Source: Actinomycetota bacterium
GTDB lineage: Bacteria; Actinomycetota; Acidimicrobiia; Spongiisociales; UBA11373
Reading direction: 5' to 3'
DNA: 27,726 bases
Assembly: GCA_038059105.1 (NCBI GenBank)
Contig: JBBTKD010000112.1
Coordinates: 1,163 to 28,888 of the forward strand
The notes beneath the pieces were generated by a model. That model searched no databases, was not told where the DNA came from, and worked only from the letters and a program-made list of their open reading frames with translations. The translations under genes and the position numbers were made by a program. Below, in pieces: positions 247 through 26,982 of the stretch (positions within the stretch are counted from its first letter, which is position 1; every line of letters starts with the position of its first letter).

Positions 247-337
247 GTCAGATTCCCCGGTGCCGGATGCCGGAGAGCGGATGCCGGATGCCGGAGAGCG
301 GATGCCGGGTGCCGGATTCGGGAATCCGGTATCTGAC
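247..337. repeat. Heptamer tandem array (TGCCGGA family) bounded by a short inverted repeat GTCAGAT/ATCTGAC
   Basis: 261-337 reads as 11 in-phase 7-mers (tgccgga tgccgga gagcgga tgccgga tgccgga gagcgga tgccggg tgccgga ttcggga atccggt atctgac). It includes an exact 21-bp duplication at 261-281/282-302. gtcagat is at 247-253. Confidence 0.9.
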
Positions 338-339
338 CT

Positions 340-873
340 TTAGCGATAGGGCGTGAGCAACGCGGCGAGGACGTCCATGTCGTCGCGTACCTCCGTTTGC
401 CATGCCGCCAGACGTCGCGCCGTCGGGGCAACCACGAACATGAGCAGGATCGACGCACCCGCCCCGTAGATGACCCATACGCCGTTGCCTGCAGACCATG
501 ACAGCAACAGACCAACGGGTCCAACTGCGGCGGCGGCGAGCACGCCCCTCATCGTGACCCGGAACGCCCACACAGACAGATGACCCGCCGACCGATCATC
601 TGGCGGCTCCCGGCTAGCGAAGGCGATGACCGTCGCCGCCAACCCCACGGCGGCGAACAACATGATCTGGGCAGTGACTTCCTCGATGCGGGGCTCGCCC
701 GAACCACCGCCGAGAGTCAGGACTGCGACGGCAGTGATGACCGAAGCAACGGAGAGGAACGTGACCGCCGATCGCAGCACCAGCAGCACCGGGCCCTTCG
801 GAGGCTGCAACAGCGCAATGCGCAACGCGAGCAGAAAAGCGGGACGCCAACCGGGGTCTGTGGTTGGCGTCAT
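340..873 (-). CDS. Hypothetical membrane protein, ~4 TM helices (177 aa)
   Basis: ORF 340..978 trimmed to ATG at 873 (MTPTTDPGWRPAFLLALRI), because the upstream part only translates the repeat array. Four hydrophobic stretches. Confidence 0.7.
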   Translation of the reverse strand: MTPTTDPGWRPAFLLALRIALLQPPKGPVLLVLRSAVTFLSVASVITAVAVLTLGGGSGEPRIEEVTAQIMLFAAVGLAATVIAFASREPPDDRSAGHLSVWAFRVTMRGVLAAAAVGPVGLLLSWSAGNGVWVIYGAGASILLMFVVAPTARRLAAWQTEVRDDMDVLAALLTPYR

Positions 874-898
874 CGGGAGAGTTTGGCATGAGGACGGC

Positions 899-1033
899 AG
901 GATTCCGGGTTGCCGGACTCCGGATGCCGGAGATGCCGGATTTCGGATGCCGGACACCGGATGCCAGAGAAGAGGCAAGAGCTTCGACGTCCCTTCCCGA
1001 GTCTGGAATCCGGCATCCGAAATCCGGAATCCG
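899..1033. repeat. Heptamer array (GCCGGAT family) forming a hairpin
   Basis: Perfect 19-bp inverted repeat ccggatttcggatgccgga (936-954) / tccggcatccgaaatccgg (1009-1027), embedded in further degenerate 7-mers. Confidence 0.9.
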
Positions 1034-1255: not shown

Positions 1256-3811
1256 CTAGTCCCCACCAAGTCCGGTCGGAAGACGAGGGCCCGCGTCGCC
1301 CTGAAAGACCCTGCCCGCAGCGAGCCACGCCGAGAGGTCGGTGAAGCCCATTGGTTTGGCAATGAAGTAGCCCTGAGCGACGTCACACTCAGCAGCGCGC
1401 AGCAGATCCCACGTCCCCCGGTTCTCCACCCCTTCGGCGACGACCCGCATTCCGAGTGAGTGCACCAGGCCCGCGGTCGATGTCACGATCTTTGCCTGAC
1501 GCTCGTCGACGGCCATGTCCATGACGAAGGACCTATCGATCTTGACCTCATCGATCGGAAGGCCGCTCAGATAGGAGAGCGATGAGTACCCGGTGCCGAA
1601 GTCGTCGATCGAGAGGGTCACGCCGATCTCGTCGAGCGAATTGAGCACCAGTCGAGCGCGCGCCGAGTCGGTCATCATCGTCGTCTCGGTCACCTCGAGG
1701 GTGACTGCCTGAGGGTCGACGTCGCACTCGCCAATCAGGCGGGCGACCAGATCGGGGAACTCCGGGTCGCTCAGGGACGAGGCGGCGATGTTCACCGCCA
1801 CCGAAAGACGCTGGCCGTCGTTGCGCAGCCGGCCGAGGTCACGAAACGACACGCGCAGGATATGTTCCGTAAGCGGCCTGATGAGTCCAGTTCTCTCGGC
1901 GAGCCCGATGAACTCTTCAGGAGCAACGAACCCGTGACGGGGGTGGAGCCAGCGCGCCAACGCCTCGACGCCGGCGATCGAACCATCTTCGAGATACGCC
2001 TTCGGCTGGTAGTGCACCGCGAGCGTCCCGGCCTCGATGGCGTCGCGTAGCTCTCCGGCCAGCGCGAGCCGCCGGGTGCTGTAGCGATCCCGCTGCGGGT
2101 CATACACCTCGAAACTCGATCCCCCTGCCTTGGCCTCATACATGGCGACGTCGGCGCGCCGCAGCAGCGTCTCGCCGTCGGTGCCGTGATCGGGAGCAAA
2201 GGCGATCCCGATGCTGCCGTTCACCTGGATGGCGAGACCCTCGTTGATGAACGGACGTTGCAGTACCGCACCGATGCGGCGGGCCCAATCGGACACCTCG
2301 GCCACACCGCGAACGTCGCGCAGGACGATTCCGAACTCGTCACCGCCCAGACGCGCGATGTGATCATCGCCTCCCACCTCCTCGGAGAGTCGCAGTGCGA
2401 GATCCTGAAGCAGCGCGTCGCCGCGTTGATGACCCAGGGTGTCGTTCACTTCCTTGAACCGATCGAGGTCGATGAGCAGCACAGCCACACGGGTCTCGCT
2501 GTCACGAGCCTTGCGTAATGCGTCTTCGACCACGATTGTGAAGTGCAGACGGTTGGGGAGGCCAGTAAGAGCGTCGTGCAGCGCCTGATACTCCTTGCGA
2601 CTCATCTCCGTCCGGAGACGGTCGAGGAGTCGACCACGCTCGAGTGCGACCCTCGCCTGACGGGCGAGCGTGTCGAAGAGCCTGAGTTCATCGGGTCCAA
2701 ACGATGAGCCCCGCTCCGGAGCGCCGACCACCAGCAGTGCCGCGGTACCGCTGTCACCGCGCATGCAGGCGACGAGTGCGTCGGTGATCCCACGACGCCG
2801 ATAGTGCTCTGCGACGACCTCCGGTACATCGGCGAGCACGGCGACGGCGGTTGCGGGTTCGGTGAGTTCTCCGAGGGACTCGATGAGCGCAGGCGGCGCT
2901 GGGCGCCGCTGGGACGGTCCGGTACCCTCACTGGACGTCGCCGTCGAATCAACGCCGCGCGAGAGCACGACCTCCGCAAAGCGGGCGGAGAAGAGCGAGC
3001 GAGCGTGGGCAAGTGTCGCCTCGAGCAGCTGGTCGGTGTCGACTGCACCGTCGATGGCATTAGTGAACCCGTGAACCGCCTCCAGGTCTTCAAAGCGTCG
3101 ACGGAGAGACCCGTACACCCGGACGGCGCCGTGGAGCGCGACGGCAACCACCCCGAGACCGATAACCGAGATCGGTTCAATCCAGTAGATCGCAAGACCG
3201 CCGACGGCCACCGCTGCTGCCGCCAGAGAGATGATGAGGCCGGGGAGGAGTGAGCGAACGACCTCCCCCGGCTTGCGTCCCGGGACTTTCAGCAGGAGTG
3301 CCGCCGCCACGAGTCCGCCGTTGACGAGCAGCGTCGCACCGAGGGCGATGGCGCCCACCGCCAGGCCCACGATCGATACCGGCGAGTGGCCGTCGAGCAG
3401 ACCGCGATAGATCGCCAGACCTGCAGCGGAGTCGAGATAGGAGAGGGAGAGATTGAAGAAGAGCCGTTCACCACGCGACTTGTGGCGAATCGCGAGCGCG
3501 GAGCCGGAGCCGAGCAGACGGCCCACGATCAGTCCAGTGGGTGAAGCCGAGGCAAGACCGAGCAGCAGGGGAATCTCCGAGAGGGAGGCGCTGTGACCGA
3601 CACCCTTCATCTGGATACGGATCGAGAACGTCTCAGAGACGAGAAAACCAACGGCGATCACCCACCATGGCAATGACAGCGGGGGGATTGGAGCGTCCGC
3701 CCTGAGCGCAAGGGCGTGCAGTGGCACTGCCGCCACCACCATGGCGACCCCGAGCGCGATGATCCGGACCCGCACAAAGCGAGCCGGAGACGCGGCTTCT
3801 TCAGGCGTCAT
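1256..3811 (-). CDS. Membrane-bound diguanylate cyclase/phosphodiesterase (multi-TM + GAF-like + GGDEF + EAL)
   Basis: 851-aa ORF with a hydrophobic N-terminus and the motifs HDALTGLPNR, RLGGDEF, VEALARW, IDDFGTGYSS and AEGVE. Confidence 0.95.
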   Translation of the reverse strand: MTPEEAASPARFVRVRIIALGVAMVVAAVPLHALALRADAPIPPLSLPWWVIAVGFLVSETFSIRIQMKGVGHSASLSEIPLLLGLASASPTGLIVGRLLGSGSALAIRHKSRGERLFFNLSLSYLDSAAGLAIYRGLLDGHSPVSIVGLAVGAIALGATLLVNGGLVAAALLLKVPGRKPGEVVRSLLPGLIISLAAAAVAVGGLAIYWIEPISVIGLGVVAVALHGAVRVYGSLRRRFEDLEAVHGFTNAIDGAVDTDQLLEATLAHARSLFSARFAEVVLSRGVDSTATSSEGTGPSQRRPAPPALIESLGELTEPATAVAVLADVPEVVAEHYRRRGITDALVACMRGDSGTAALLVVGAPERGSSFGPDELRLFDTLARQARVALERGRLLDRLRTEMSRKEYQALHDALTGLPNRLHFTIVVEDALRKARDSETRVAVLLIDLDRFKEVNDTLGHQRGDALLQDLALRLSEEVGGDDHIARLGGDEFGIVLRDVRGVAEVSDWARRIGAVLQRPFINEGLAIQVNGSIGIAFAPDHGTDGETLLRRADVAMYEAKAGGSSFEVYDPQRDRYSTRRLALAGELRDAIEAGTLAVHYQPKAYLEDGSIAGVEALARWLHPRHGFVAPEEFIGLAERTGLIRPLTEHILRVSFRDLGRLRNDGQRLSVAVNIAASSLSDPEFPDLVARLIGECDVDPQAVTLEVTETTMMTDSARARLVLNSLDEIGVTLSIDDFGTGYSSLSYLSGLPIDEVKIDRSFVMDMAVDERQAKIVTSTAGLVHSLGMRVVAEGVENRGTWDLLRAAECDVAQGYFIAKPMGFTDLSAWLAAGRVFQGDAGPRLPTGLGGD

Positions 3812-5206: not shown

Positions 5207-5236
5207 AAGAGGGCGGGCCCATGGGCCCGCCCTCTT
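5207..5236. terminator. Perfect 30-bp palindrome, probable bidirectional terminator
   Basis: aagagggcgggccca/tgggcccgccctctt lies between the convergent tRNA-Arg and nuclease gene. Confidence 0.7.
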
Positions 5237-7427: not shown

Positions 7428-9101
7428 GTGAACGAGCAACTCGCCGACCTCTCCTCCCGCTTCTGGGACGTCGCCATGGCCAACTCGCCGATGTGGGCAA
7501 GCCTTCTCGGCGACCGCCGTTTCGATGCGGAGGTCGAGGATCTCTCCCGCGAGCACGAGGACGAGGTCATCGAACAGCTCGACGGGATCATCGCCTCGGC
7601 GCAGGCCATCTCCCCGGAAGGACTCGAGCGGAACGACCGCATCACCCGCCACGTGCTCATCTCGGAAGCCGAGGGCATCGTCGGCAATCTGCGCAGCCGC
7701 ACCGCCGAGTTCCTGGTCGACCCGATGCTCAGCCTGCACATCGACATCATTCAGGCGGTGCCGCAACTCCGTGCCGCCACCGACGAACAGGCGTGGGCGT
7801 TCGTCGAGAAGGCGTCGAAGGTGGGCATGCAGTTCGACCAGGCGCTCGAGCGACACCGCCAGGGTGTCGCCAATGGAAGGACGCCACCGCGCGTCGCCGT
7901 CGAGAAGGTGCTCGCCCAGCTCGACGCGTTTGCGGGGTTGAGCGTGAGCGAGAACCCCTTCATGCAGATCGCGTTGCCCGACGAGTGGGACGATCTGAAG
8001 CGAGCCCGCTGGAAGCACGCTATGGAAGAGCAGGTCACCAGTTCGATCAACCCGGGATTCGCCCGGTACCGCGACGGGATCGCCGCGGATGTTCTCTCCA
8101 AGTCGCGACCGCCGGAGAAGTCTGGAGTCTGCTGGCTCCCCGACGGTGAAGAGATCTACCGGCGGGCAGTCAAGCGATACACGTCACTGGACACTGACCC
8201 CCACGAGGTCCACCAGATCGGACTCGACGAGATCGCCTCGCTCGAGGACGAGTACCGCACCCTCGGGAGCAAGGTGCTCGGGACCACGAGCATCTCGGAG
8301 ATCTACCACCGCCTCCGCAACGATCCCGCTCTCCGCTTCAAGACCGCGCAGGAAGTGCATCGCGCCGCGGAGAGCGCATTGGCCCGTGCTACCGAGGCGA
8401 TCCCTGACTGGTTTGGGCGGTTGCCCGAGGCTCCGTGCATCGTTCAACCGGTTCCCGACGTTGGTGCGGCCGATGCCACCATCGCGTACTACTTCCCGCC
8501 GTCAGACGACGGCAGGCCCGGGATCTTCTTCATCAATCTCTCCGAGCCGGAGACCCGGACGCGGTTCGAGTCCGAGGTGCTCGCCTTTCACGAAGCCATC
8601 CCCGGACATCACCTCCAGTTGGCGATCGCCCAGGAACTACAGGGGGTGCCTGCGTTCCGTCGTCACGGCAACGTCACGGTCTTCGTCGAAGGTTGGGGTC
8701 TCTACACGGAACGGCTCGCCGACGAGATGGGTCTCTACTCCGGCGACGTGGAACGGATGGGAATCCTCTCGTTCGATTCATGGCGCGCCGGACGGCTCGT
8801 GGTCGATACCGGTCTGCACGCCCTGGGCTGGAGCAGGCAGAAGGCGATCGACTACTTCGTGGAAAACTCACCGCAGGCGATCAACAACATCGTCAACGAA
8901 GTCGATCGATACATCGGCTACACCGGCCAGGCCCTCGCCTACAAGATGGGGCAACGCGAGCTGTTCCGACTCCGCAGCGAGGCACAGAAGGCGATGGGAC
9001 CGCGCTTCGACATCAAGGGATTCCACGACACCGTGCTCGAGTCCGGTCCTGTCCCGCTCGGACTCCTCGGCGACCTCGTGCGCGAGTGGGCGGCGGGCTA
9101 A
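7428..9101 (+). CDS. DUF885 family protein (557 aa)
   Basis: GTG at 7428 with AGGAGG RBS; motifs HEAIPGHHLQ, EGWGLYTE, RLVVDTGLH, EVDRY, GQALAYKMG. Confidence 0.9.
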   Translation: MNEQLADLSSRFWDVAMANSPMWASLLGDRRFDAEVEDLSREHEDEVIEQLDGIIASAQAISPEGLERNDRITRHVLISEAEGIVGNLRSRTAEFLVDPMLSLHIDIIQAVPQLRAATDEQAWAFVEKASKVGMQFDQALERHRQGVANGRTPPRVAVEKVLAQLDAFAGLSVSENPFMQIALPDEWDDLKRARWKHAMEEQVTSSINPGFARYRDGIAADVLSKSRPPEKSGVCWLPDGEEIYRRAVKRYTSLDTDPHEVHQIGLDEIASLEDEYRTLGSKVLGTTSISEIYHRLRNDPALRFKTAQEVHRAAESALARATEAIPDWFGRLPEAPCIVQPVPDVGAADATIAYYFPPSDDGRPGIFFINLSEPETRTRFESEVLAFHEAIPGHHLQLAIAQELQGVPAFRRHGNVTVFVEGWGLYTERLADEMGLYSGDVERMGILSFDSWRAGRLVVDTGLHALGWSRQKAIDYFVENSPQAINNIVNEVDRYIGYTGQALAYKMGQRELFRLRSEAQKAMGPRFDIKGFHDTVLESGPVPLGLLGDLVREWAAG

Positions 9102-9113
9102 GCGGATGATCTC

Positions 9114-9138
9114 AGATATCAGACGTGATCTGATATCT
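9114..9138. terminator. Hairpin between convergent genes, within a degenerate CTGATA(T/C) repeat tract (~9108-9165)
   Basis: agatatcaga-cgtga-tctgatatct gives a 10-bp stem. Confidence 0.55.
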
Positions 9139-9171
9139 CCATCTGATACCTCGCCAATACCTCGGGAGGAT

Positions 9172-9696
9172 CTAGTGGCGCTCGCCAACGATGACGGAGA
9201 CGGTGCGTCCACCGTCCAGACCGCCGAGCACCATCTCCACCTCAGTGCCGGGCTCCGTGTGACGCACCAGGTCGCTCAACTGTTCCATCGACACGATCGA
9301 CTCGCCGTCGAACGCGACCACGCGGTCTCCCGAATGAATGCCCGCCTTGTCGGCAGGTGACTCGGGGAGGACATCGACCACGAGCACGGCACCCGGAGTG
9401 TCCCGACCGGTGATGCCGAGGAATCCCTGACCGGCGATCACTTCATCGGAGCCGTCGGGACCGGACCCCGGACCGCGACCGCCACCTCCGGGAAACATCG
9501 GGCCGTGCCCCGGCATGTGGCCCTCGAAGGCAATGTCGCCGCCGAATACCTCGGTCGCATCGTCTTCGCCGACCGCATGTCCCACGGCGTACCCGGCGCC
9601 GAACACCGCAACCGCGACGAGAAACGCTATTGCCCAAAACATGGTGCGGTCGGTTGTCGCTGGCTCCGCCGCCTCTGTGGTCTTCTTGGGGGACAT
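9172..9696 (-). CDS. Membrane-anchored single-PDZ-domain protein
   Basis: 174 aa; RBS GAGGAG; one TM helix, a Gly/Pro/His linker, then GFLGI...SPADKAGIHSGDRVVAFDG (PDZ signature). Confidence 0.88.
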   Translation of the reverse strand: MSPKKTTEAAEPATTDRTMFWAIAFLVAVAVFGAGYAVGHAVGEDDATEVFGGDIAFEGHMPGHGPMFPGGGGRGPGSGPDGSDEVIAGQGFLGITGRDTPGAVLVVDVLPESPADKAGIHSGDRVVAFDGESIVSMEQLSDLVRHTEPGTEVEMVLGGLDGGRTVSVIVGERH

Positions 9697-10143: not shown

Positions 10144-10200
10144 CACCAGACGCCTCTCTGCTCCGGCTGGAGCCTGATGCCTGGAGCCTGGTGCCTACCG
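10144..10200. repeat. Heptamer array (CTGGAGC/CTGATGC family) directly 3' of tRNA-Ser(GGA)
   Basis: ctggagc ctgatgc ctggagc ctggtgc at 10167-10194, with a partial complementary arm caccag near 10144. Confidence 0.85.
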
Positions 10201-10291
10201 CGGAGGGAGGGGGATTTGAACCCCCGTGACGATTTTCACCGCCAACACGCTTTCCAGGCGTGCGCACTAGGCCGGACTATGCGATCCCTCC
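10201..10291 (-). tRNA. tRNA-Ser (anticodon GGA)
   Basis: Minus strand GGAGGGA/TCCCTCC acceptor stem, cacgc-ct-GGA-aa-gcgtg anticodon arm, long variable arm; upstream -10 TACACT at 10310-10305. Confidence 0.96.
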
Positions 10292-10318: not shown

Positions 10319-10777
10319 ATGACTACCTCCTTTGACGATGCCATGCGACTCGCCCTCACCGCCGCTCGGGAAGCAGCGACGGCAGGCGAGGTGCCGGTCG
10401 GCGCGGTGCTGCTCGACCCCAACGGTGCAGTCGTTGCGACAGACCACAACCGCGGAGTGGAATTCGTGGATCCCACCGCGCACGCCGAGATGCTGGTGTT
10501 GCGCAAGGGCGCCAGCCGGGCCGCCGACTGGCGGCTTAACGGACACACGCTTGTTGTGACCCTCGAACCGTGCGCCATGTGCGCAATGGCAGCCGTATGG
10601 GCGCGGGTCGACCGCATCGTGTACGGCGCCTCCGATCTCAAGGCAGGCGCGGCGTGGAGTCTGTACAACATCCCTCAGGATGCCCGACTCAATCACCGAT
10701 GTGAACTGGTCTCCGGTGTACTCGCCGCAGAAGCGTCGGCACTGCTCGCCGAGTTTTTCGCGGCGAGGCGGGACTGA
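10319..10777 (+). CDS. tadA: tRNA adenosine(34) deaminase (152 aa)
   Basis: Motifs GEVPVGAV, TAHAEM and TLEPCAMC (HAE/PCxxC); ATG at 10319; tRNA-Arg(ACG) substrate gene nearby. Confidence 0.9.
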   Translation: MTTSFDDAMRLALTAAREAATAGEVPVGAVLLDPNGAVVATDHNRGVEFVDPTAHAEMLVLRKGASRAADWRLNGHTLVVTLEPCAMCAMAAVWARVDRIVYGASDLKAGAAWSLYNIPQDARLNHRCELVSGVLAAEASALLAEFFAARRD

Positions 10778-10820
10778 GGTCGGAGGATCGAGACCTACAA
10801 TCGCAAGAGAGGTCTTAGGT

Positions 10821-10886
10821 ACCAGGCACCAGGCACCAGCCAGAGAAGATTCTGGAGCCTGGAGCCTGATGCCTGATCCCTGATTT
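10821..10886. repeat. Heptamer hairpin array directly 5' of tRNA-Ser(CGA)
   Basis: accaggc accaggc accagcc, then ctggagc ctggagc ctgatgc ctgatcc ctgattt. Confidence 0.88.
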
Positions 10887-10887
10887 G

Positions 10888-10976
10888 GGAGGGGTGGCCG
10901 AGCGGCCGAAGGCGGCAGTCTCGAAAACTGTTGGGCCGGGTTTCCGGTCCCGTGGGTTCAAATCCCACCCCCTCCG
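10888..10976 (+). tRNA. tRNA-Ser (anticodon CGA)
   Basis: GGAGGGG/CCCCTCC acceptor stem, gcagt-ct-CGA-aa-actgt anticodon arm, long variable arm. Confidence 0.96.
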
Positions 10977-10980
10977 CGGC

Positions 10981-11066
10981 AGGTACCAGGCTCCAGGCTT
11001 CAGCCGGAACATCTGGACCTGGTGCCTGGCATCTGGGCATCCGGCCTCCGGTACCCGGTATCCGAG
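10981..11066. repeat. Heptamer hairpin array directly 3' of tRNA-Ser(CGA), followed by a CCGG-type tract
   Basis: accaggc tccaggc ttcagcc ... ctggtgc ctggcat, then atccggc ctccggt acccggt atccgag. Confidence 0.8.
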
Positions 11067-11115: not shown

Positions 11116-11964
11116 ATGTTCCTCGGGAATCGGACCATTGCTCGGCGCGTCCTTGCCTTCCCGCGTCGTCGTGCGGAACTACTGGCGACCCTGACGACCG
11201 AGATTCAGTCGGGGCCCACGACCCGTCCGCTGGTGATCGCCAACGTATCGAAGACCTACCACGACGGACGATCTTCGGTCCCCGCCCTCGACCGCGTGAA
11301 TCTGAAGGTGGCGCAGCGAGAGTTCGTGTGCCTGGTCGGAGCCTCGGGGTGTGGCAAGACCACTCTGCTGAACCTCATCGCAGGCATCTACCGCCTCGAT
11401 CACGGATCCATTGACACCGGCGACCGGCGCATCGGGATGGTGTTTCAGGAGCCGGCACTTTTCCCGTGGCTCACTGTCGCTCGCAACATCGATCTGGCGA
11501 TGCGGCTACGGGGAGTCGAGCCCGACACGCGCAATCGACGCATCGAGGAACTGCTTCGTCTGGTGCACCTCGAGGGATTCGGAGAGAGCCGTCCCCACGA
11601 ACTGTCGGGTGGGATGCAGCAGCGCTCCGCCCTCGCCCGCGCGTTGGCGCAGGAGGCCGACCTGCTCCTCATGGATGAGCCGTTCGGGTCGCTCGACGCC
11701 ATGACCCGCGACCGCCTGCATGACGAACTGGAACGCATCTGGCTCACGACCGACCTCACCATCCTGTTCGTCACCCACAACGTGCGCGAGGCTGTCAGGC
11801 TCGGCGATCGCGTAGTCGTCCTCTCGAGCCGCCCGGGAAGGGTGGCCGCCGAATTCACCGTCGACATCGAGCGTCCCCGTCGAGCCGACTCCGCGGCTCT
11901 GGCACGTGTCGCCGCGCAAGTCACCGACCGTCTGCGGCAGGAGGTGCGGCGACATGGTCACTGA
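11116..11964 (+). CDS. ABC transporter ATP-binding protein, NitT/TauT (SsuB/TauB-like) family; true start may be further downstream
   Basis: Walker A GASGCGKT, MVFQEPALFPW, signature LSGGMQQR, Walker B LLLMDEPF, H-loop FVTHN. Confidence 0.93.
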   Translation: MFLGNRTIARRVLAFPRRRAELLATLTTEIQSGPTTRPLVIANVSKTYHDGRSSVPALDRVNLKVAQREFVCLVGASGCGKTTLLNLIAGIYRLDHGSIDTGDRRIGMVFQEPALFPWLTVARNIDLAMRLRGVEPDTRNRRIEELLRLVHLEGFGESRPHELSGGMQQRSALARALAQEADLLLMDEPFGSLDAMTRDRLHDELERIWLTTDLTILFVTHNVREAVRLGDRVVVLSSRPGRVAAEFTVDIERPRRADSAALARVAAQVTDRLRQEVRRHGH

Positions 11965-12832
11965 TTCCTACCTTGACGCCGACCTGCGCGGACTCGATGC
12001 GCTCGACACCCCGCGGATCGAAGTCGGAAGTCTCGCCCGGCGTGTCTGGTCGGCGATATGGCCCAAGCTGCTCGCGGTGACGATCGTATTCGCCGGATGG
12101 CAGGCCCTGGTTTGGTCCGGCTGGCGACCGACCGACGTGATCCCGCTGCCGGCCACAGTGCTCTCGGAACTCGGCTCGATCATCACGACCGCATCGTTCT
12201 ACCAAGCGGTAACGATCACGATGCAACGAGCGGTGTTCGGATTCTTCCTCGCGATCATCGTGGGCCTGGTGGTCGGCGTGGCAGTTTCTCGAAGCGACCT
12301 CCTGCGTCGCGCGGTCGGTTCGATCATCACCGGACTCCAGAGCATGCCGTCAATCGCTTGGTTCCCCTTTGCCATCCTGCTCTTTGGTCTAAACGAGAGT
12401 GCGATCCTGTTCGTGATCGTGCTTGGGGCGGCGCCGGCGATCGCCAACGGGTTGATCTCGGGAATCGACCACATTCCTTCGATCCTGCTTCGAGCGGGGA
12501 AGGTGCTCGGAGCCAAGGGAGTGGCGGCATGGCGGCACGTGGTGTTGCCGGCGGCGCTGCCTGCGTTTGTCTCGGGACTCAAGCAAGGATGGGCGTTCGC
12601 CTGGCGATCACTCATGGCCGGCGAGTTGCTGGTGACCATCGCATCACGCCCGTCGATAGGAGTGCAACTCAAGACCGCCCGTGACTCACTGGACGCCACC
12701 GCCCTGCTGGCGATGATGATCGTGGTGCTGGTGATTGGCATCGTGGTCGACTCGGTGCTGTTCGGTTCAGTAGAACGCCGTATCCGCCGGAACCGGGGAG
12801 TGCTTGGCGGAGGAGTAGACGCGGTCCGGTGA
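11954..12832 (+). CDS. ABC transporter permease, NitT/TauT (SsuC/TauC-like) family (292 aa)
   Basis: ATG at 11954 overlapping the end of the ATPase gene; QSMPSIAWFP and HVVLPAALP motifs; multiple TM helices. Confidence 0.92.
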   Translation: MVTDSYLDADLRGLDALDTPRIEVGSLARRVWSAIWPKLLAVTIVFAGWQALVWSGWRPTDVIPLPATVLSELGSIITTASFYQAVTITMQRAVFGFFLAIIVGLVVGVAVSRSDLLRRAVGSIITGLQSMPSIAWFPFAILLFGLNESAILFVIVLGAAPAIANGLISGIDHIPSILLRAGKVLGAKGVAAWRHVVLPAALPAFVSGLKQGWAFAWRSLMAGELLVTIASRPSIGVQLKTARDSLDATALLAMMIVVLVIGIVVDSVLFGSVERRIRRNRGVLGGGVDAVR

Positions 12833-12834
12833 AA

Positions 12835-12862
12835 GTCAGGCACCAGGCACCAGGCGCCAGGA
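12835..12862. repeat. Heptamer array (ACCAGGC family) 3' of tRNA-Ser(TGA)
   Basis: gtcaggc accaggc accaggc gccagga. Confidence 0.85.
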
Positions 12863-17079: not shown

Positions 17080-17083
17080 GGGG

Positions 17084-17184
17084 AGGCATCAGGCATCAGG
17101 CATCAGGCAGAGCGAACAAAGAGGGGCTGGAGAGCAGCCTACGAATCCGGTCTTACCTGAAGACTGAGGACTGAAGACTGAGGA
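17084..17184. repeat. Two heptamer arrays of different sequence with complementary cores (TCAG vs CTGA)
   Basis: aggcatc x3 (17084-17104); ctgaaga ctgagga ctgaaga ctgagga (17157-17184). Confidence 0.88.
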
Positions 17185-17189
17185 CTTCC

Positions 17190-17633
17190 TCAGGCCCCCG
17201 CCAGCGCTCTCTCCACCGCCGTCTGCTCTTCCGCTGAGAGGGGTTCGATGCCTTGGCCGTCGCGGATCATCTTGGTGAAAAAGAGTGACTGGCGTGGTCC
17301 GTGAAGCAGGGTGATGACGAGACCGTCGCGACGTTCGTTGAGGAGTGCGATCGCCCGTGACATGTGCCCGGTTCGCTCGTCGTTGGCGTCGAAGGTGACC
17401 ACCGCGGCGTAGCGCAGCGCACCCGGCATGCGGTCGACCACCGATCGCAATACCGGTTGCATCTTGGCGACCGCGGCTTCGATCAAGGCAAGGTCTTCAT
17501 CGAGACGGCGGATCTGATCGAGCACGTTGGCGTCGCGAGGAAGCGCTGAGAAACGACGTCGTTCCAACGACACCATATAGATCGCCATGACGGCGACGAA
17601 CAGGCCGATGACCGCGATGACGTCGATCACCAT
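17190..17633 (-). CDS. DUF4446-like membrane-anchored coiled-coil protein
   Basis: 147 aa; N-terminal TM helix and coiled coil; VVTFDA...GHMSRAIALLNERRDGLVITLLHG..SLFFTK pattern. Confidence 0.75.
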   Translation of the reverse strand: MVIDVIAVIGLFVAVMAIYMVSLERRRFSALPRDANVLDQIRRLDEDLALIEAAVAKMQPVLRSVVDRMPGALRYAAVVTFDANDERTGHMSRAIALLNERRDGLVITLLHGPRQSLFFTKMIRDGQGIEPLSAEEQTAVERALAGA

Positions 17634-20566: not shown

Positions 20567-21852
20567 CAGCGCGCACCGAAGCGCTCATGGTGGCGTTGAG
20601 CGCCGTGATCACTGCGGCGGGCACTGCACTCGTCACCGCCACCACCTCCGGGACCGTCACCCTCGACACGTTCGCCGCCGGTGCGGTCCACCTCGGCTCT
20701 TTCGGGGGCTTGCTCATCGCCTTTCGCAGGTGGGCTCCCGCGGCGAGTCGACTCCTACTGCCGATCGTGTCACTGATCACCGCAGTGGGTTCGATCGAGG
20801 TGTTCCGCATCGATCCCGATCTGGGGAGGTTGCAGCGGTGGTGGCTGGTTCTCGCAGCCGTCATCGGAATCGCGGCGATGCGCCTTTTGCACCGCCGCGG
20901 GGTGAAGGTGCTGCGCCGCTACCGCTACCTGTTCCTTGTCGCGTCGCTGGGGCTGCTCGCGCTCCCCCTGCTCCCCTCGAGCCTGCCGCTCGGGGGGGCA
21001 ACGGTCAACGGATCGCGGCTGTGGGTGCGGCTCAGCCTTGATGAGCGGACACTGTCGTTCCAGCCGGGTGAGGCGGCCAAGGTCCTCATCGTCGTGTTTC
21101 TCGCCTCCTACCTGGCCGACCGGCGGCGTGTTCTCGCAGAGATGCCTCACTCTGTCGGACCACTCCGCCTCCCTGAGCCTCGCCAACTGCTGCCGATCCT
21201 CCTGGCATTCTCCATTGCGTTCATGGTTCTCGTCTACCAGCGCGACCTCGGCGCCTCGCTACTGCTCTTCCTCGTGTTCGTGATGCTCCTCTACGTGGCG
21301 ACCGCACGGGCGACCTATCTCGTCGCCGGGGGCCTTCTCGCGGTCGGAGGTGCCTTCGCCGCGGCGACGTGGTTCTCGCATGTCGCGGTTCGAGTCGAGG
21401 CGTGGCTGCACCCGTTCCAGGACTACGCCACCGGCGGGTATCAAGTGGCACAGGGCGTGTTCGCACTCGCCGAGGCGGGACTGGTCGGCACCGGCCTCGG
21501 CAACGGATCGCCGTGGCTGATTCCCGCCGCGTCCACCGACTACGTGTTCATCGCCATCGTCGAAGAGACCGGGCTCGCCGGAGGGCTCGCGTTGCTCGCG
21601 GCATATGCACTCCTCGTCACGATCGGGTTCGGCATCGCCCTGCGCGCCAACGACTCGTTCCGGTCACTCCTCGCTGCAGGTCTTACGATCGTGCTCGCCG
21701 TGCAGACGCTGCTGATCATCGGTGGCGTACTGCGCATGCTGCCCCTTACCGGCATCACGCTGCCCTTCGCCTCATACGGCGGCTCCTCGCTGCTGGTCAA
21801 CGTCCTCATCATTGCCCTCCTCGCCCGCGTCTCTCACGAGGAGCGCACATGA
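20563..21852 (+). CDS. rodA: SEDS family peptidoglycan polymerase RodA/FtsW
   Basis: NGSRLW, FQPGEAAK, QRDLG, STDYVF, PLTGITLPFASYGGSS; multi-TM; position in cluster. Confidence 0.92.
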   Translation: MTARTEALMVALSAVITAAGTALVTATTSGTVTLDTFAAGAVHLGSFGGLLIAFRRWAPAASRLLLPIVSLITAVGSIEVFRIDPDLGRLQRWWLVLAAVIGIAAMRLLHRRGVKVLRRYRYLFLVASLGLLALPLLPSSLPLGGATVNGSRLWVRLSLDERTLSFQPGEAAKVLIVVFLASYLADRRRVLAEMPHSVGPLRLPEPRQLLPILLAFSIAFMVLVYQRDLGASLLLFLVFVMLLYVATARATYLVAGGLLAVGGAFAAATWFSHVAVRVEAWLHPFQDYATGGYQVAQGVFALAEAGLVGTGLGNGSPWLIPAASTDYVFIAIVEETGLAGGLALLAAYALLVTIGFGIALRANDSFRSLLAAGLTIVLAVQTLLIIGGVLRMLPLTGITLPFASYGGSSLLVNVLIIALLARVSHEERT

Positions 21853-23249
21853 AGACAAGCCTGCGTCGGATCGCCGCGGCTCTCGCCGCCTCGCTCGCCT
21901 TCTCGGGCATCTGGATGACGTGGCTGGTGACCGACGCAGCCAGCCGATACCGAAACGACCCCCGCAACGTTCGGTCGCAGCAGGCTGGCTACCTCCCCGG
22001 TGCGGGTCGCATCATCACTGCCGACCGTGTGATCGTGGCCATCGATGACTCGAATGGGGAACGCCAGTACCCCGAGGGTGTTGCGTATGCCCACATCGTT
22101 GGTTACGACGCAGCGTCCGGGCGAAGTGGAATCGAGCAGTCGCGATATGCCGCACTCCGGGTGCGCGACGACGGGTCGATCACCGACTGGCTTCTCGGAC
22201 TCGGCGACGGAGGCACTCGCCAGCCCCACGACGTCGTACTCACCGTGCACGACCCACTGCAACAGGTGGCACGCGACGCTCTCGGCGGAAAGACCGGAGC
22301 GGTAGTGGTGATCGACGTCGCCACCGGCGCGGTGTTCGCCTATGTGTCTTCGCCTGCCTACGACCCCAACCAGGTTGTCGCTGGCAGCCTCGACCCCGAA
22401 GAATCCGCGGATGCGACCCTCGATCGCGCCGCCGATCGCGTGCTCCCACCGGGATCGACCTTCAAGGTCATCGTGGCCGCCGCCGCCCTCGACGTCGGCG
22501 CCAATCCCGACACTCCCTTTACGGACTCCGAGGAGTATCTCGCCCCTGGAGCGGGATCTCCTATTCGCAACGCCAGCGACGGATTCTGCAGCGACGGGAA
22601 CACGCTCACTCTCACTGACGCGCTCGTGGTGTCGTGCAACACCGTGTTTGCGGCCCTTGCGGTCGACCTGGGAGGTGCATCCGTCGTCGGAGCGGCACGG
22701 CGAGCCGGGTTCGGAACAGTGATCCCCTGGGAGACCGGAGCCGCGAGATCCTCTCTTACGGGCGCCGACGTGTTGGAGGCCGACGACGGAGCTCTCGCCC
22801 AGACCGGAATCGGGGAACGCGACGTGCGCGTCACCCCCCTCCTCATGGCCCTGATCGCCAGCTCGATCGGAAACGGCGGCGTGGCGATGCAGCCGTTCGT
22901 GGTTGGAGCGATCCTGACGCCCTCGGGAGACGTCATCGCGCAGACCGAACCCGCACCGTTTACCCGAATGTTCTCATCCGCGGTGGCAGCTGACCTGCGA
23001 ACGATGATGACCGAGGTGGTGACGAGAGGCACCGGGACCGCGGCACAGGTCGATGGCCTGATCGTGTCAGGCAAGACCGGCACCGCCGAAGGATCGGGAG
23101 GACCGCACGCCTGGTTCATCGGAATCGCCGGACACGACAACCCCGAGATCGCAATCGCCGTCGTCGTCGAATCGGGAGGCTCGGGAGGAAGAGTGGCGGC
23201 GCCCATCGCGGCGGAAGTTCTGAAGATGTGGCGGGACCTCAGCGGGTAA
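21849..23249 (+). CDS. pbpA: Class B penicillin-binding transpeptidase (466 aa)
   Basis: ATG at 21849 (ATGA overlap with rodA); SxxK (GSTFK), SxN (SCN) and KTG motifs. Confidence 0.92.
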   Translation: MKTSLRRIAAALAASLAFSGIWMTWLVTDAASRYRNDPRNVRSQQAGYLPGAGRIITADRVIVAIDDSNGERQYPEGVAYAHIVGYDAASGRSGIEQSRYAALRVRDDGSITDWLLGLGDGGTRQPHDVVLTVHDPLQQVARDALGGKTGAVVVIDVATGAVFAYVSSPAYDPNQVVAGSLDPEESADATLDRAADRVLPPGSTFKVIVAAAALDVGANPDTPFTDSEEYLAPGAGSPIRNASDGFCSDGNTLTLTDALVVSCNTVFAALAVDLGGASVVGAARRAGFGTVIPWETGAARSSLTGADVLEADDGALAQTGIGERDVRVTPLLMALIASSIGNGGVAMQPFVVGAILTPSGDVIAQTEPAPFTRMFSSAVAADLRTMMTEVVTRGTGTAAQVDGLIVSGKTGTAEGSGGPHAWFIGIAGHDNPEIAIAVVVESGGSGGRVAAPIAAEVLKMWRDLSG

Positions 23250-23275
23250 CTCGAACGCGGCTCTTCACTGGGCTT

Positions 23276-23346
23276 TCGTTACCGGTTACCCGTTTCCCGT
23301 TCGCGACCACTGTGCACGCGAACGGGTAACGGGTAACGGGTAACGA
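23276..23346. repeat. 30-bp heptamer-based hairpin (GGGTAAC family) between pbpA and pknB
   Basis: tcgttaccggttacccgtttcccgttcgcg (23276-23305) / cgcgaacgggtaacgggtaacgggtaacga (23317-23346), 2 mismatches, 11-nt loop. Confidence 0.92.
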
Positions 23347-23408
23347 GGCAGGACCACGCCTAATACCTAGATAAAGCTTGAACACCCCCACGGTTACCAT
23401 TGCCTCCC

Positions 23409-26036
23409 GTGGATTCGCAACGGATTCTCTCCAATCGCTACGCCCTGCAAGCGCACATTGCGCGGGGTGGGATGGCCGACGTCTACGTCGCCGTCGATCA
23501 ACGCCTGGGACGCAACGTTGCGGTCAAGATCCTCCACGGTGAGTACGCCGCCAGCACTGCGTTCGTCGAGCGGTTTCGACGCGAGGCTCAGGCTGCCGCC
23601 AACCTGACCCATCCCGGAGTCGTCGCCATCTATGACTGGGGCGAGGACGACGGCACCTACTTCATGGTCATGGAGTTGGTCCAGGGTCAGAACCTGCGCG
23701 ACGTGGTTCGCGCCGAGGGGACCCTCAAGCCGAGACGGGTCGCCCAGATCGGCTACGAAGTTGTGGCGGCTCTCTCCGCGGCGCATGCGCAGGGTCTGGT
23801 GCACCGGGACATCAAGCCGGCAAACATCCTCGTTACCCCCGAGGGTCCGGTCAAGGTCGCCGACTTCGGAATCGCCCGGGCGTTCGACGATTCCGAGCAA
23901 CTCACCCGCACCGGCTCGGTTATCGGCACCGCGACCTACTTCAGCCCGGAGCAGGCGCAGGGTCATGTGGCCGATGCCCGCAGCGATCTGTACTCACTCG
24001 GCGTGGTGATGTACGAGTTACTCACCGGGCAGCCTCCCTTCACCGGAGAGTCGCCGGTTGCAGTCGCCTATCAACACGTTCGTGAGACGGCGGAGCCACC
24101 GTCGTGGCGCAATCCCGACATCCCGCTCGGCCTCGAGGCGGTCGTCATGAAGGCGTTGGAGAAGCATCCTGATGACCGCTATCAGGACGCCGCCGAGATG
24201 GCCGATGACCTCAAGCGGGTCCTCGCCGGACAAGTCCCGCTGGCGGCACAGGCGACCGAAGCTCCGACGCGCCTGATGTCGGCGGCACCGCTGCCACCGG
24301 CATACGACGATCCGTATTCCACACAGCGTCCGCCGCGTCGAACGGGTCAGTACGCCGACCCGGGGCGTCCCGGTCGTGCCCGTCCGGACCGCAACACCAT
24401 CATCATCGGCGTCCTCTCGGCGGTGGCGTTGCTCGGTCTTGGTCTGATCCTGCTCGTCAAATTGCTCGGCCCTTCCGGCGGAACGGCGTCGTTGACGATT
24501 CCCGACGTACGCGGCATGGATCTCGCTGAGGCGCGCTCTGCACTCGACGATGCCGGAATGGCACGCATCGGCGAAGAGTTCGTCGCCGACAGCGAGATAG
24601 CCGTGGGACTCGCTGCCGGCACCACTCCTCCGGCCGGCACTGCCGCGGTGCGCGGCACCGAAGTGACGCTGCTTGTTTCAGGCGGCGTCGCCGATATCGC
24701 GGTTCCCCGGGTGATCGAACAGACCCTTGAGAATGCTCGCTCTGCAATCGAGGGCGTCGGACTCGAAGTGGGGGACGTGACTCAAGAGGTGTCCTCCGTG
24801 ATTCCAGAGGGAAGCGTCATCAGCCAAAACCCCGAACCCGGAGTGTTGGTGGTCGCGGGTACAGACATCGACCTCGCGGTGTCCCTGGGAGCCACCGCAC
24901 TGATCGTCCCCGAGGTGGTCGGCAAGACCGAGGCCGACGCGAGGTTCACGCTCACGGAGGCCGGATTTCAGACCTCCCAGATCAGCATCGAGCGCCGACC
25001 CTCCGGGGAGGTCGAAGAGGGGTTTGTCATCGAGACCAACCCGCCAGCGGGAGAAGCGCTCGGACTTGGTGGAGTGGTCACTCTGGTTATCAGTCAGGGA
25101 GCCATCCCTGCGGTCGTTCCCGATGTCATCGGCGAGATTGCCGAAGTCGCCCAGGTGATGCTTGAGGACTTCGGCTTTGAGGTCGTCTTCGACGCTGAGA
25201 TCGAGGTCGCCTGGAACAATCCGCTCCACGGCCTGGTGGCCGAGCAAGACCCCACCGCCGGACAGACACTGGAGTTCGGGTCCCGCGTGACCCTCCGCAT
25301 CGGACGCGCCGCAACCGCGGCACCGGTGCCGGCGGTCGTGGGTGATGCCGAAGCCGCGGCTCGCACCGAGGTCGAATCCGCCGGTTTCGTGTGGGCCAAG
25401 GGAGCAGACACGCTGCTCGCTCCCGGCGACGGCAACATCGGACGCGTCGTGTCTCAGGACCCGACCGCCGGAACCAACCGACCTATCGGCTCGATGGTCA
25501 CGGTGAGCATCGGGATAGAGGGCGCATCCGTGCCCAACCTGTTCAACGGTGGCTCCGGCGGGTGCTCGACGGCCATCACGCAGGCGACGGCGCAGAGCAG
25601 GATCAGCGCGGCGAACCTCGTGATGGCGACGGTGGCGCCCGTCGACGAGTACGCCTACTCGACGTCACCCGGGCTCAACACCCACGCATGTGAGGGACGC
25701 ACGGTCGAGCAGAGCCCGCCGCCGGGCACCGTCGTCGCCAAGAACTCGACCGTGATCGTGACCTTCGACATCGTTCGCACCCCGATCGACAACGAGATCT
25801 ACGGCCTGCTTCCTGCCGACGCAACCGCAAGGTTCCCGGTGTTCATCCTCGAGCAGTCAACCGTCGATGGTGGTCTGTGCTTTGACGCCGACCTTGCATT
25901 CGACGGGACCATCCGAAAGATCGACCCACTGCCCCAGCAGGAGATCCCCCTCGTTTCCGGCGCCTACAAGATCCTCTACTGGCTGGCGACGACCACTCCC
26001 GGCCCCGCCTGCCCGGCGTACACGCCGCCGCCATGA
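23409..26036 (+). CDS. pknB: Stk1/PknB-family PASTA-domain Ser/Thr kinase (~875 aa; ORF track start TTG 23400)
   Basis: ARGGMADVY, VAVKIL, HRDIKPANIL, KVADFGIA, GTATYFSPEQ, one TM helix, then PASTA repeats. TACCAT -10 at 23395-23400 favours GTG 23409. Confidence 0.95.
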   Translation: MDSQRILSNRYALQAHIARGGMADVYVAVDQRLGRNVAVKILHGEYAASTAFVERFRREAQAAANLTHPGVVAIYDWGEDDGTYFMVMELVQGQNLRDVVRAEGTLKPRRVAQIGYEVVAALSAAHAQGLVHRDIKPANILVTPEGPVKVADFGIARAFDDSEQLTRTGSVIGTATYFSPEQAQGHVADARSDLYSLGVVMYELLTGQPPFTGESPVAVAYQHVRETAEPPSWRNPDIPLGLEAVVMKALEKHPDDRYQDAAEMADDLKRVLAGQVPLAAQATEAPTRLMSAAPLPPAYDDPYSTQRPPRRTGQYADPGRPGRARPDRNTIIIGVLSAVALLGLGLILLVKLLGPSGGTASLTIPDVRGMDLAEARSALDDAGMARIGEEFVADSEIAVGLAAGTTPPAGTAAVRGTEVTLLVSGGVADIAVPRVIEQTLENARSAIEGVGLEVGDVTQEVSSVIPEGSVISQNPEPGVLVVAGTDIDLAVSLGATALIVPEVVGKTEADARFTLTEAGFQTSQISIERRPSGEVEEGFVIETNPPAGEALGLGGVVTLVISQGAIPAVVPDVIGEIAEVAQVMLEDFGFEVVFDAEIEVAWNNPLHGLVAEQDPTAGQTLEFGSRVTLRIGRAATAAPVPAVVGDAEAAARTEVESAGFVWAKGADTLLAPGDGNIGRVVSQDPTAGTNRPIGSMVTVSIGIEGASVPNLFNGGSGGCSTAITQATAQSRISAANLVMATVAPVDEYAYSTSPGLNTHACEGRTVEQSPPPGTVVAKNSTVIVTFDIVRTPIDNEIYGLLPADATARFPVFILEQSTVDGGLCFDADLAFDGTIRKIDPLPQQEIPLVSGAYKILYWLATTTPGPACPAYTPPP

Positions 26037-26100
26037 CCCGCGGCGGGAATGACGCCACGAGGATCAGCGGTCGGTCTCCGGTGGCAGCTCGGATCGCCAC

Positions 26101-26982
26101 GTGAGCGGGTCACCGGTGGATCGCCAATCGCCAACTGCCAATTGCGGGAGGCCCGAAGGGCCGACCTCGCGCAACCGAGCACTGCTCGCCTGGTATCACC
26201 GCAACCGTCGAGATCTCCCCTGGCGCCGTGACCGCGATCCATGGCGCATTCTCATCAGCGAGGTGATGCTGCAGCAGACCCAGGCGACGCGAGTCGCCCC
26301 TGTCTTCGAGCGGTTCATCGCCCGGTTCCCCACCGTGGAGGACGCAGCCGCGGTTACGCCGGATGTCGTGGTATCCGCCTGGGTGGGCCTCGGGTACAAC
26401 GCTCGCGCTCGCCGGCTCCACGCCGCAGCGCGCCGCATCGCCGCCGACGGGTGGCCCCGAACCGCGGAGGAGCTCCGGTCACTCCCTGGTGTCGGGCAAT
26501 ACACCGCGGCTGCGGTGGCATCGATCGCCTTTGGAGAACGGGTTGCCGCCGTCGACACCAACCTGCGACGGGTGCTCTCGCGATGGGTAGGGAGAGCATT
26601 GAGCGGTGCGGGACTGGAGGAGGTCGCCGCGCAGAATGTCGCAGCAGATGCGGCGACCTGGAACCAGGCAGTCATGGATCTCGGTGCTGTGCTGTGCCGT
26701 CCCCGGCAACCGGGGTGTGACGCGTGCCCGGTGGCATCGTGGTGCGTTGACCCCACTGTCTACGTCGCACCACCGCGGCAGGCCACCTTCGCTGGATCTG
26801 ACCGGCAGGTCCGCGGGGCGGTGGTGCGAACACTGGCAGGACGATCGTGGTCGACCCCGGACGAGATCGCGGCAGCCACCGGTCATCGTCGCGATCGGGT
26901 CAGTAAGACGGCCGACCGCATGGTGACGGAGGGTCTCCTCGAAGCACATGAAGGCGGTGTCCGGCTGAGCCGTATAGGCTGA
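26101..26982 (+). CDS. mutY: A/G-specific adenine glycosylase, actinobacterial short form
   Basis: RDLPWR, ISEVMLQQT, HhH LPGVGQYTA, VDTN, Fe-S motif C-X6-C-X2-C-X5-C. Confidence 0.92.
   Translation: MSGSPVDRQSPTANCGRPEGPTSRNRALLAWYHRNRRDLPWRRDRDPWRILISEVMLQQTQATRVAPVFERFIARFPTVEDAAAVTPDVVVSAWVGLGYNARARRLHAAARRIAADGWPRTAEELRSLPGVGQYTAAAVASIAFGERVAAVDTNLRRVLSRWVGRALSGAGLEEVAAQNVAADAATWNQAVMDLGAVLCRPRQPGCDACPVASWCVDPTVYVAPPRQATFAGSDRQVRGAVVRTLAGRSWSTPDEIAAATGHRRDRVSKTADRMVTEGLLEAHEGGVRLSRIG
26119..26146 (+). repeat. Degenerate heptamer tract inside the 5' end of mutY
   Basis: gatcgcc aatcgcc aactgcc aattgcg. Confidence 0.65.

Follow-up and report, generated by a model that had tools for sequence, protein, structure and literature searches.

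Intergenic heptamer arrays in an Acidimicrobiia genome from groundwater form polar hairpin elements and are probably related to S23p (PF05635) cassettes

That 7-base repeats are in excess in the intergenic DNA of bacteria is a decades-old observation, and the only explanation offered for it is a guess at polymerase slippage. Heptanucleotides are the commonest long simple repeats, for which slippage has been suggested (Mrazek 2007, as cited in PMC4679880 and PMC4692102). Xanthomonas repeats of the GGGANTN/GGGAATC type are flanked by the same genes in two species, differ there in length and sequence, and include some inverted pairs (PMC4692102), while in Geobacter metallireducens three to five tandem heptamers (MTYCTGA) occur in opposite-strand pairs at variable distance and were read as binding sites of a global regulator (PMC2700814). 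Heptamers are also found in the S23p intervening sequence of Coxiella, which has inverted-repeat borders with a 28-bp terminal stem and is cut by RNase III in vitro; its 5′ part contains AGAAGA and then tandem GACAGAT heptamers, which differ in number from strain to strain (PMC4990558). Here we describe a window of 27,726 nt (the whole stretch of DNA analyzed, from contig JBBTKD010000112.1 of an Actinomycetota bacterium of the class Acidimicrobiia) that contains eleven intergenic elements built from tandem arrays of period 7, together with the arrays of the genome to which it belongs. We put at about 60% the probability that these arrays form the arms of hairpin cassettes of the S23p type. With few exceptions these would be gene-less copies or remnants, probably changing in size by slippage, and RNase III would probably cleave them once transcribed.

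In their gene-bearing form, the elements share with the open reading frame (ORF)-bearing 23S intervening sequences of Coxiella burnetii and Leptospira (PMC4990558) the same PF05635 protein (E 1e-35) between stem-forming terminal inverted repeats, and, like Coxiella with its GACAGAT units, they have CAG-containing tandem heptamers in the arm and an AGAAGA-type flank. Unlike the 23S intervening sequences, they follow ordinary genes and tRNAs rather than lying in rRNA, are nearly all gene-less, number hundreds of copies in ~100 unit families, and where the S23p gene is present it has its own promoter-like TTGAC. Period 7, intergenic position and many copies are shared with the cyanobacterial short tandemly repeated repetitive (STRR) sequences, the TAACTGA repeats of Beggiatoaceae (PMC4679880) and the GGGAATC repeats of Xanthomonas (PMC4692102), as are one or two free positions per unit, some inverted pairs, and identical flanking genes in related species with different array length and sequence; one unit found here, AGTCWTC, is a single base from TAACTGA after rotation. 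Unlike the genomes in those reports, this one is small, has 65% GC and holds many families at once; its hairpin polarity is strict, its junctions are conserved, and the link of its arrays to PF05635 is absent from those papers. The paired layout is the same as in Geobacter metallireducens, although density is much higher here, and PMC2700814 names no gene family. Repetitive extragenic palindromes (REPs) and their hairpin-forming doublets (REPINs), which are associated with RAYT transposases, are likewise dispersed intergenic inverted doublets forming hairpins near gene ends, but the arms of the present elements are tandem repeats, their interiors are unrelated and there is no RAYT gene. The literature that we searched yielded no published link between genome-wide heptamer arrays and PF05635.

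The arrays are a real, extremely abundant and organized system. The analyzed genome (G000) is a 1.4-Mb draft of 167 contigs, 65% GC and 73% complete, and contigs with DNA identical to the window derive from groundwater metagenomes. Genes were predicted with a simple codon-usage model (1378 genes, 90% coding), and tandem arrays were called in the window and genome-wide by Tandem Repeats Finder (TRF). A preliminary description of the window had listed a series of 7-bp arrays, and TRF returned a period-7 array at each of those sites, except that the row at 9128-9152, covering TCTGATA units, has period 13; ten of the 19 window intergenic regions of at least 40 nt contain an array. Genome-wide, period 7 is clearly in excess, the opposite of what would have refuted that description, accounting for 523 of 1391 TRF rows, with periods 9 (206 rows) and 12 (128 rows) the next commonest and nearly all coding. 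At a TRF score of 50 or more there are 169 rows of period 7 and at most 58 of any other. Intergenic DNA is ~10% of the genome and holds 425 of the 523 period-7 rows, which cover ~9.5% of its bases, so that arrays make up ~1% of this streamlined genome. We counted 105 canonical units, of which the commonest are ACCAGGC (51), ACTGATG (38), AAGACTG (36), AATGGGC (27), AGGCATC (25) and ACCGGCG (23), and superperiods of 14 and 21 nt were also found. Both in their period-7 excess and in being mostly intergenic with many units, the arrays belong with the STRR-like heptanucleotide long simple-sequence repeats.

Pairing was tested by searching for a reverse-complement partner within 120 nt, with reversed or complemented sequences as controls. 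About 155 of 413 intergenic arrays (about 40%) were paired, compared with 3-18 in the controls, and adjacent TRF arrays formed 72 inverted, 12 direct and 110 unrelated pairs. The proposal that arrays are the left and right arms of hairpins therefore stands for those arrays and, in the window, for five sites. The five sites, 895-1040, 9100-9172, 10812-10887, 10978-11066 and 23270-23350, fold well when scored as z against shuffled sequence (z -2.5 to -8.2); 250-340, 12830-12890 and 26100-26160 gave no paired fold relative to shuffles, and 17080-17190 was weak. Aligned stems have a median of 23 bp, with 88% Watson-Crick pairs, and enclose an interior that is not the short loop first envisaged: loops have a median of 37 nt (interdecile 10-96) and range from 0 to ~120 nt.

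These hairpins have a strict polarity. In every one of the 54 inverted pairs of this genome with CAG/CTG units, the CAG-type array is the 5′ arm and its CTG-type partner the 3′ arm, and the CAG arm is also first in 7/7 pairs of relatives. The polarity spans at least 14 families, families without CAG are each just as one-sided, and the rule is valid on both strands because the element is its own reverse complement. A purine, a C-over-G and a stop-codon rule were compared by eye with the main families and none fits all of them. The inner junctions are conserved: CCAGA, with TCTGG opposite, at 75-90% per position in 88 AGTCNTC arms, AACCGG/CCGGTT in GGGCAAT arms, and CCGGAA in CAGGCNC arms. Variation within a unit is confined to one position (AGTC[N]TC, 1.68 bits at position 5 and others near 0; GTT[N]CCC, 1.64 bits at position 4 and the remaining positions near 0), and from this free position comes a single mismatch at about every seventh pair of the folded stems. 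Between the junctions, interiors are unrelated from copy to copy. The full element, on either strand, would thus read as 3-9 heptamers (mostly NNNNCAG), a CCAGA, CCGGA or AACCGG junction, an interior, the complementary junction and the complementary array (CTGNNNN); the interior would be a PF05635 gene in the complete form and 0-120 nt of unrelated sequence in most copies.

That organization bears directly on a first alternative, that these are plain long simple-sequence repeats which arose by in situ slippage favoring 7-nt steps and have neither a link to a gene nor a function. In many bacteria heptanucleotides outnumber other long repeats, and slippage is their proposed cause (Mrazek 2007, via PMC4679880 and PMC4692102), and the superperiods, the differences between species in copy number and unit at orthologous sites, and the filling of space right up to the stop codon are all as such a process would have it. 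The 54:0 polarity, the junction motifs and the single variable position are unexplained by a plain slippage model, which also sits poorly with the same families recurring at dozens of loci, with the merely background levels in sister genera of the same GC content, and with arrays that bracket and co-occur with PF05635; we regard this alternative as unlikely. The preliminary description had favored a single organized system over scattered slippage, and the recurrent families, polarity, junctions and hypervariable unit position agree with it. Two of its finer points are weaker: a YYRR core, ascribed to most units, is enriched modestly (64% vs. 48%), and two neighboring arrays belong to one family in 17% of cases, little above the 12% for random pairs.

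The link to PF05635 comes from four copies of the gene in this genome (E 1e-25 to 1e-35). All four lie between inverted arrays (Table 1), and the families of their arms also occur gene-less with the same junctions. The cassette genes encode four-helix-bundle proteins of 117-136 amino acids, and the predicted fold of the whole C94 cassette contains 65 long-range arm-arm pairs. In a survey of 43 PF05635 copies in 21 genomes of the same order, an upstream heptamer array stood 40-100 nt from the gene in 38, both arms were present at 25 and the arms were complementary in 24 of these; the arms have the polarity of the gene-less hairpins (5′ arm CAG 14:1, 3′ arm CTG 12:2). Upstream of the start codon, 17 of the 43 genes have a TTGAY motif (TTGAC in 16, TTGAT in one), at 34-36 nt in 16 genes and 44 nt in one; it is often preceded by AAGGGG/A, and there is no evident Shine-Dalgarno sequence (e.g., G000:C94 upstream of 10286; L194, L205, L208, L217 and L220). 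This arrangement suggests that the PF05635 gene is transcribed from a promoter of its own into a leaderless mRNA.

Gene and arrays also go together across relatives. We surveyed 34 relatives by sampling 8-40 kb of each, and the densities rest on these small samples. Each of the six congeners has 25-78 period-7 rows per 100 kb, and values were also obtained for genus g3 (52-73), g7 (15-45), g14 (22) and G036, a member of another family (30); the remaining relatives, of similar GC content, have 0-13. The excess is genome-wide here and restricted to part of the family. PF05635 is present in all six congeners at 1-7 copies each, and over 35 genomes, with the caveat that kin are not independent, it occurs in 13/13 array-rich and 7/22 array-poor genomes (Fisher 6e-5), its copy number following array density with a Spearman rho of 0.74. 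In this genome, 42% of gene-less arrays are within one mismatch of one of its own cassette arms, as against 10% for random or shuffled heptamers.

Protein and arm also diverge together: S23p identity is 0.59, 0.48, 0.45, 0.41 and 0.39 for arm units that differ by 0, 1, 2, 3 and 4 mismatches (permutation p 0.0005). Linked descent can by itself explain this co-divergence, and recognition of the arm by the protein would give the same result. The latter possibility belongs with a second alternative, in which each heptamer is bound by a protein (S23p itself, or else a nucleoid protein or a global regulator) and paired arrays are regulatory or architectural. Six of the seven unit positions are near-invariant and one is free, as in the GGGANTN repeats of Xanthomonas. 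Avd of diversity-generating retroelements binds nucleic acids. PF05635 resembles Avd (PMC10053308), and the S23p protein of this genome, besides its match to PF05635 (1e-35), matches a bAvd-like family weakly and the Xanthomonas structure 2GSC (PDB; E 4e-28), described as a homopentamer (PMC4990558). The paired arrays of Geobacter, with their variable spacing, are a precedent, having been read as sites of a global regulator (PMC2700814). Simple linkage predicts the co-divergence equally, though, and the arrays mostly follow stop codons rather than sit in promoters, and this genome holds no cognate gene for many of the families; as a complete account, sites for a binding protein also seem to us improbable.

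Comparison of orthologous sites indicates how the elements change. In array-poor genera the tRNAs of the tadA/tRNA-Ser region are separated by 12-40 nt, whereas congeners have heptamer hairpins in those gaps, some with related units (ACCAGGC, ACCAGAC, GCCAGAT) and others with quite different ones (CTGGWGC, CTGACAC, TCGGGNG, CTGCNGT), both arms having changed together between species. G006 has a cassette at the site of C94, with 56% amino-acid identity and different arms, and at the gene end of this site G004 has a gene-less AGTCNTC hairpin with two further genes after it. For C31, the counterpart in G002 shows 78% identity and has the same arms, and at that site G003 has a related left arm, a different right array and ~400 nt between them with no gene. 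We conclude from these sites that the cassettes appear to be old and vertically inherited, that their arms turn over in place and that the gene may be present or absent within them. Two observations were made in passing at these loci. Between the arms in G003 (G003:C66:17855-18365, L252) are several copies of a palindromic repeat, CTCCCCCC..GGGGGGAG, with a short AAGAACACGCG-like tail. At the C94 site both G004 (G004:C54:4599-5799, L240) and G002 (G002:C150:2877-4103, L242) have two extra small genes of ~190 and 160 amino acids, bracketed by heptamer arrays in both genomes, with a further array between the genes in G002; it looks as if gene content is turning over between arrays here.

The copies all lie between protein or tRNA genes, not as insertions in a 23S helix. 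The 23S gene is unassembled in this genome and those of relatives were examined instead; the inserts that three of them carry contain neither heptamers nor PF05635, so that no S23p intervening sequence was seen in the relatives' 23S rRNA. These insertions, of 1.1-1.9 kb, are at one common site, between positions 2120 and 2149 of the G011 gene (L255), and are missing from G004 and G011; they are likely an intron or a homing-endonuclease element (carriers in Table 1).

With respect to genes, the hairpins have a marked preference for 3′ ends. At least one gene 3′ end is flanked by 53 of 62 hairpins; the distance to it has a median of 7 nt and is 10 nt or less in 36/64, compared with a median of 44 nt to a gene 5′ end, and 10 nt or less in 1/60. 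Among regions of at least 40 nt, those between convergent genes have an array in 54% of cases, compared with 36% for co-directional and 27% for divergent genes. Arrays also lie within 40 nt of 16 of the 36 tRNAs, and since these are of many specificities the repeated association with tRNA-Ser in the window is unspecific, and we rule out tRNA-Ser specificity. One side observation concerns stop codons: TAG ends 18 of the 39 genes directly followed by an array (e.g., at G000:C126:2598, C25:1112 and C9:5806), compared with a genome average of 26%, and several of these genes share the flank T(G/A)(A/G)GAAAGTC, from which the outer edge of the hairpin element may supply the stop codon.

The preliminary description had the hairpins act as terminators or RNA-processing hairpins, and a third alternative would have them be transcription terminators or mRNA 3′-end protectors that evolved in place, the repeats being incidental. 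The position of 53 of the 62 at gene 3′ ends, at a median of 7 nt from the stop, the enrichment in convergent regions and the strong predicted folds all fit. However, T never reaches 50% of the 12 nt that follow any of 64 hairpins, i.e., there is no U-tract; stem mismatches show no G-U excess and no sense-strand bias (sense 14, antisense 17, other 95), leaving the sense strand without a wobble-pair signature; and conventional GC hairpins adjoin some arrays (e.g., 1045-1081). For these three reasons we do not class them as intrinsic terminators. Loops with a median of 37 nt that reach 120 nt, the ~60% of arrays that are unpaired, and the arrays in 27% of divergent regions also speak against such an origin, which we hold to be very unlikely. 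As for RNA processing, it is plausible, by analogy with the Coxiella intervening sequence, that the heptamer hairpins serve in this way.

Mobile-element genes had been proposed as co-occurring with the arrays. A reverse transcriptase does not appear to be among them, as PF00078 had no match in this 73% complete genome, and the four PF05635 genes have ordinary neighbors, not the adjacent reverse transcriptase of a diversity-generating retroelement. Nor is a Y1/RAYT transposase: PF01797 was found in 1/41 genomes, none of the array-rich ones, with no match in G000-G006, G008, G019, G021, G023 or G036, and the gene that does co-occur is PF05635. An unpublished genome, G039, enters the PF01797 and PF05635 searches as a single non-matching row, on which no conclusion here depends. 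We accordingly disfavor, as highly improbable, REPIN-like or miniature inverted-repeat transposable element (MITE)-like non-autonomous transposons moved by a Y1 (RAYT) or other transposase, in spite of the dispersed families, the REPIN-like inverted doublets with spacer and the contig breaks at arrays (17/334 ends), given the PF01797 distribution, interiors unrelated among copies, no target duplication seen and copies identical across samples.

Our preferred explanation, which treats the arrays as arms of S23p-type hairpin cassettes and of their gene-less copies or remnants, draws on the anatomy and polarity that we observed, on the families and junctions shared between cassettes and gene-less arrays, on the co-occurrence of gene and arrays across relatives, and on the co-divergence of gene and arms. 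Gene-less hairpins would derive from cassettes or arise by the same process. Copy number would shift by replication slippage in steps of 7, 14 or 21 nt, and arm complementarity would be kept by selection or by template switching between the arms. Once transcribed, the arms would pair in a ~23-bp stem with a mismatch at about every seventh pair, and RNase III, a gene for which is encoded in this genome, may cut this stem as in the S23p intervening sequence of Coxiella, a cut that would trim 3′ ends and separate tRNAs and the parts of operons.

A number of observations weigh against this explanation. About 60% of arrays are unpaired, and none of the eleven window elements, with interiors of 0-120 nt of unrelated sequence, contains a PF05635 gene; the four copies of this genome are all outside the window. 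PF05635 on its own does not make arrays proliferate, since it is also found in seven array-poor genomes. Within the assembled 73% of the genome no cassette belongs to ACCAGGC, the largest family (51 arrays), or to the likewise abundant ACCGGCG, GGCAGAT and GTTNCCC families. The loops of gene-less elements share with cassette interiors the 5-8-nt junction and no further homology, which leaves a simple recent internal deletion unsupported, just as the lack of G-U excess or sense bias leaves RNA-level selection unsupported by the stem mismatches. No recombinase, target-site duplication or movement was seen, and cassettes at orthologous sites look vertically inherited. Arrays are identical in seven contigs that encode the same tadA protein in other samples and in contigs of four further runs; the arrays are therefore not hypervariable at that time scale, in a comparison of assembled contigs in which rare variants would stay hidden. 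Lastly, exact AGTCWTC arrays occur in at least 118 contigs, from cyanobacteria, Bacteroidota, Planctomycetota, Chloroflexota, Acidobacteriota, metagenome-assembled genomes (MAGs) labelled Acidimicrobiia and others, and a custom profile found an S23p match near none of 118 loci in other phyla, where ~2 would be expected at the ratio of this genome, so that the zero carries little information. One such array, in the cultured enterobacterium Pantoea rodasii (NZ_MLFP01000007.1, L146), has more than 20 tandem AGTCATC units in one intergenic region and could suit bench tests.

The individual elements of the window are listed in Table 1. The window also has ordinary GC-rich hairpins, at 5207-5236 (a perfect 15-bp palindrome) and 1045-1081 (15-nt arms, 7-nt loop), so this genome has conventional hairpins near gene ends too. 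A 21-nt tandem repeat of 2.8 copies at 27120-27178 has no relation to the intergenic arrays; it is inside the open frame 27002-27724, where it looks to encode a repeat of seven residues in frame.

Table 1. Coordinates of heptamer elements in the window, PF05635 cassettes elsewhere in the genome, and 23S rRNA insertions of relatives. Free energies and z values refer to predicted folds.
Feature	Location	Strand	Structure	Context
TRF period-7 rows, window, first part	257-317, 900-965, 1005-1033, 10167-10196, 10817-10839, 10852-10884, 11036-11064			
TRF period-7 rows, window, second part	12837-12861, 13111-13140, 17084-17109, 17157-17186, 23277-23301, 23321-23345, 26120-26142			
Unpaired array	257-337	.	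~9 units TGCCGGA, 21-nt superperiod; TRF periods 7, 21; z -0.47	3 nt from stop of minus-strand gene 340-873
Long hairpin	899-1033	.	TGCCGGA left arm 899-968, 33-nt loop, TCCGGCA/AATCCGG right arm 1002-1033; -76.9 kcal/mol, z -5.65	Downstream of GGDEF-EAL gene 1256-3811 (Pfam); GC hairpin 1045-1081 adjoins
Short hairpin	9108-9165	.	TCAGATA / TCTGATA; z -2.51	Occupies gap of convergent genes 7428-9101 (+) and 9172-9696 (-, PDZ)
Right-arm-type array	10167-10196	.	CTGGAGC/CTGATGC, TCCGG junction; left arm decayed	Abuts 3′ end of tRNA-Ser(GGA) 10200-10291; congeners have full hairpins there, with other units
Hairpin	10817-10884	.	ACCAGGC x3, CCAGA junction, 12-nt loop, CTGGAGC/CTGATGC x4-5; -37.1 kcal/mol, z -4.87	Between tadA (10319-10777) and tRNA-Ser(CGA); orthologous hairpins of G002 and G004 use ACCAGAY units
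Hairpin	10980-11064	.	CAGGNNC arm, CCGGAA junction, CTGGNNC arm, then GGCATCC units; z -3.05	Immediately 3′ of tRNA-Ser(CGA) 10888-10977
Left-arm-type array	12835-12862	+	CAGGCAC x3.6, no partner arm; z +0.5	3 nt past stop of gene 11954-12832
Right-arm-type array	13111-13140	+	CTGATAC x4.3	7 nt upstream of tRNA-Ser(GCT) 13147-13239
Two arrays, different families, 47 nt apart	17084-17186	.	AGGCATC x3.7, CTGAAGA/CTGAGGA x4.3; z -1.45 (weak)	Second array CAG-type on minus strand, 4 nt past stop of DUF4446 gene 17190-17633 (Pfam)
Near-perfect hairpin	23276-23346	.	35-nt arms GTTNCCC / GGGNAAC, 89% complementary; -55 kcal/mol, z -8.18	Between gene 21849-23249 and pknB 23400-26036
Weak unpaired array	26119-26146	+	AATCGCC x3.3; TRF score 32; z +1.3	Downstream of pknB
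PF05635 cassette	G000:C94:9921-10286	-	AGTCNTC arms, ccaga...tctgg	
PF05635 cassette	C14:2079-2381		GGGCAAT arms, aaccgg...ccggtt	
PF05635 cassette	C31:2956-3405		CGCAATA arms	
PF05635 cassette	C40:17027-17428		CAGATNT arms	
23S rRNA insertion carrier	G036:C6:44177-48794 (L256)			
23S rRNA insertion carrier	G008:C19:13911-18875 (L257)			
23S rRNA insertion carrier	G019:C1:1-3771 (L258)			

A bolder extension of the cassette explanation is that each S23p paralog recognizes its own arm heptamer and, with host replication or repair enzymes, seeds or copies arms at gene ends; we think this doubtful. If it were true, S23p and its arms would be an autonomous/non-autonomous pair like a transposase and its MITEs, without a known recombinase, and a single class of element, widespread but undescribed, would have left behind the 7-base excess that has been reported from 1990 onwards in, among others, cyanobacteria, Xanthomonas, Geobacter and Beggiatoa. 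The arrays are also of relevance to the annotation and assembly of MAGs, as contigs sometimes break at them. This genome is an unusually clean case, in which polarity is strict and junctions are conserved and in whose relatives the presence of S23p, a family with no assigned function, tracks array density, and the association with S23p provides a testable lead on why 7-base repeats abound in bacteria.

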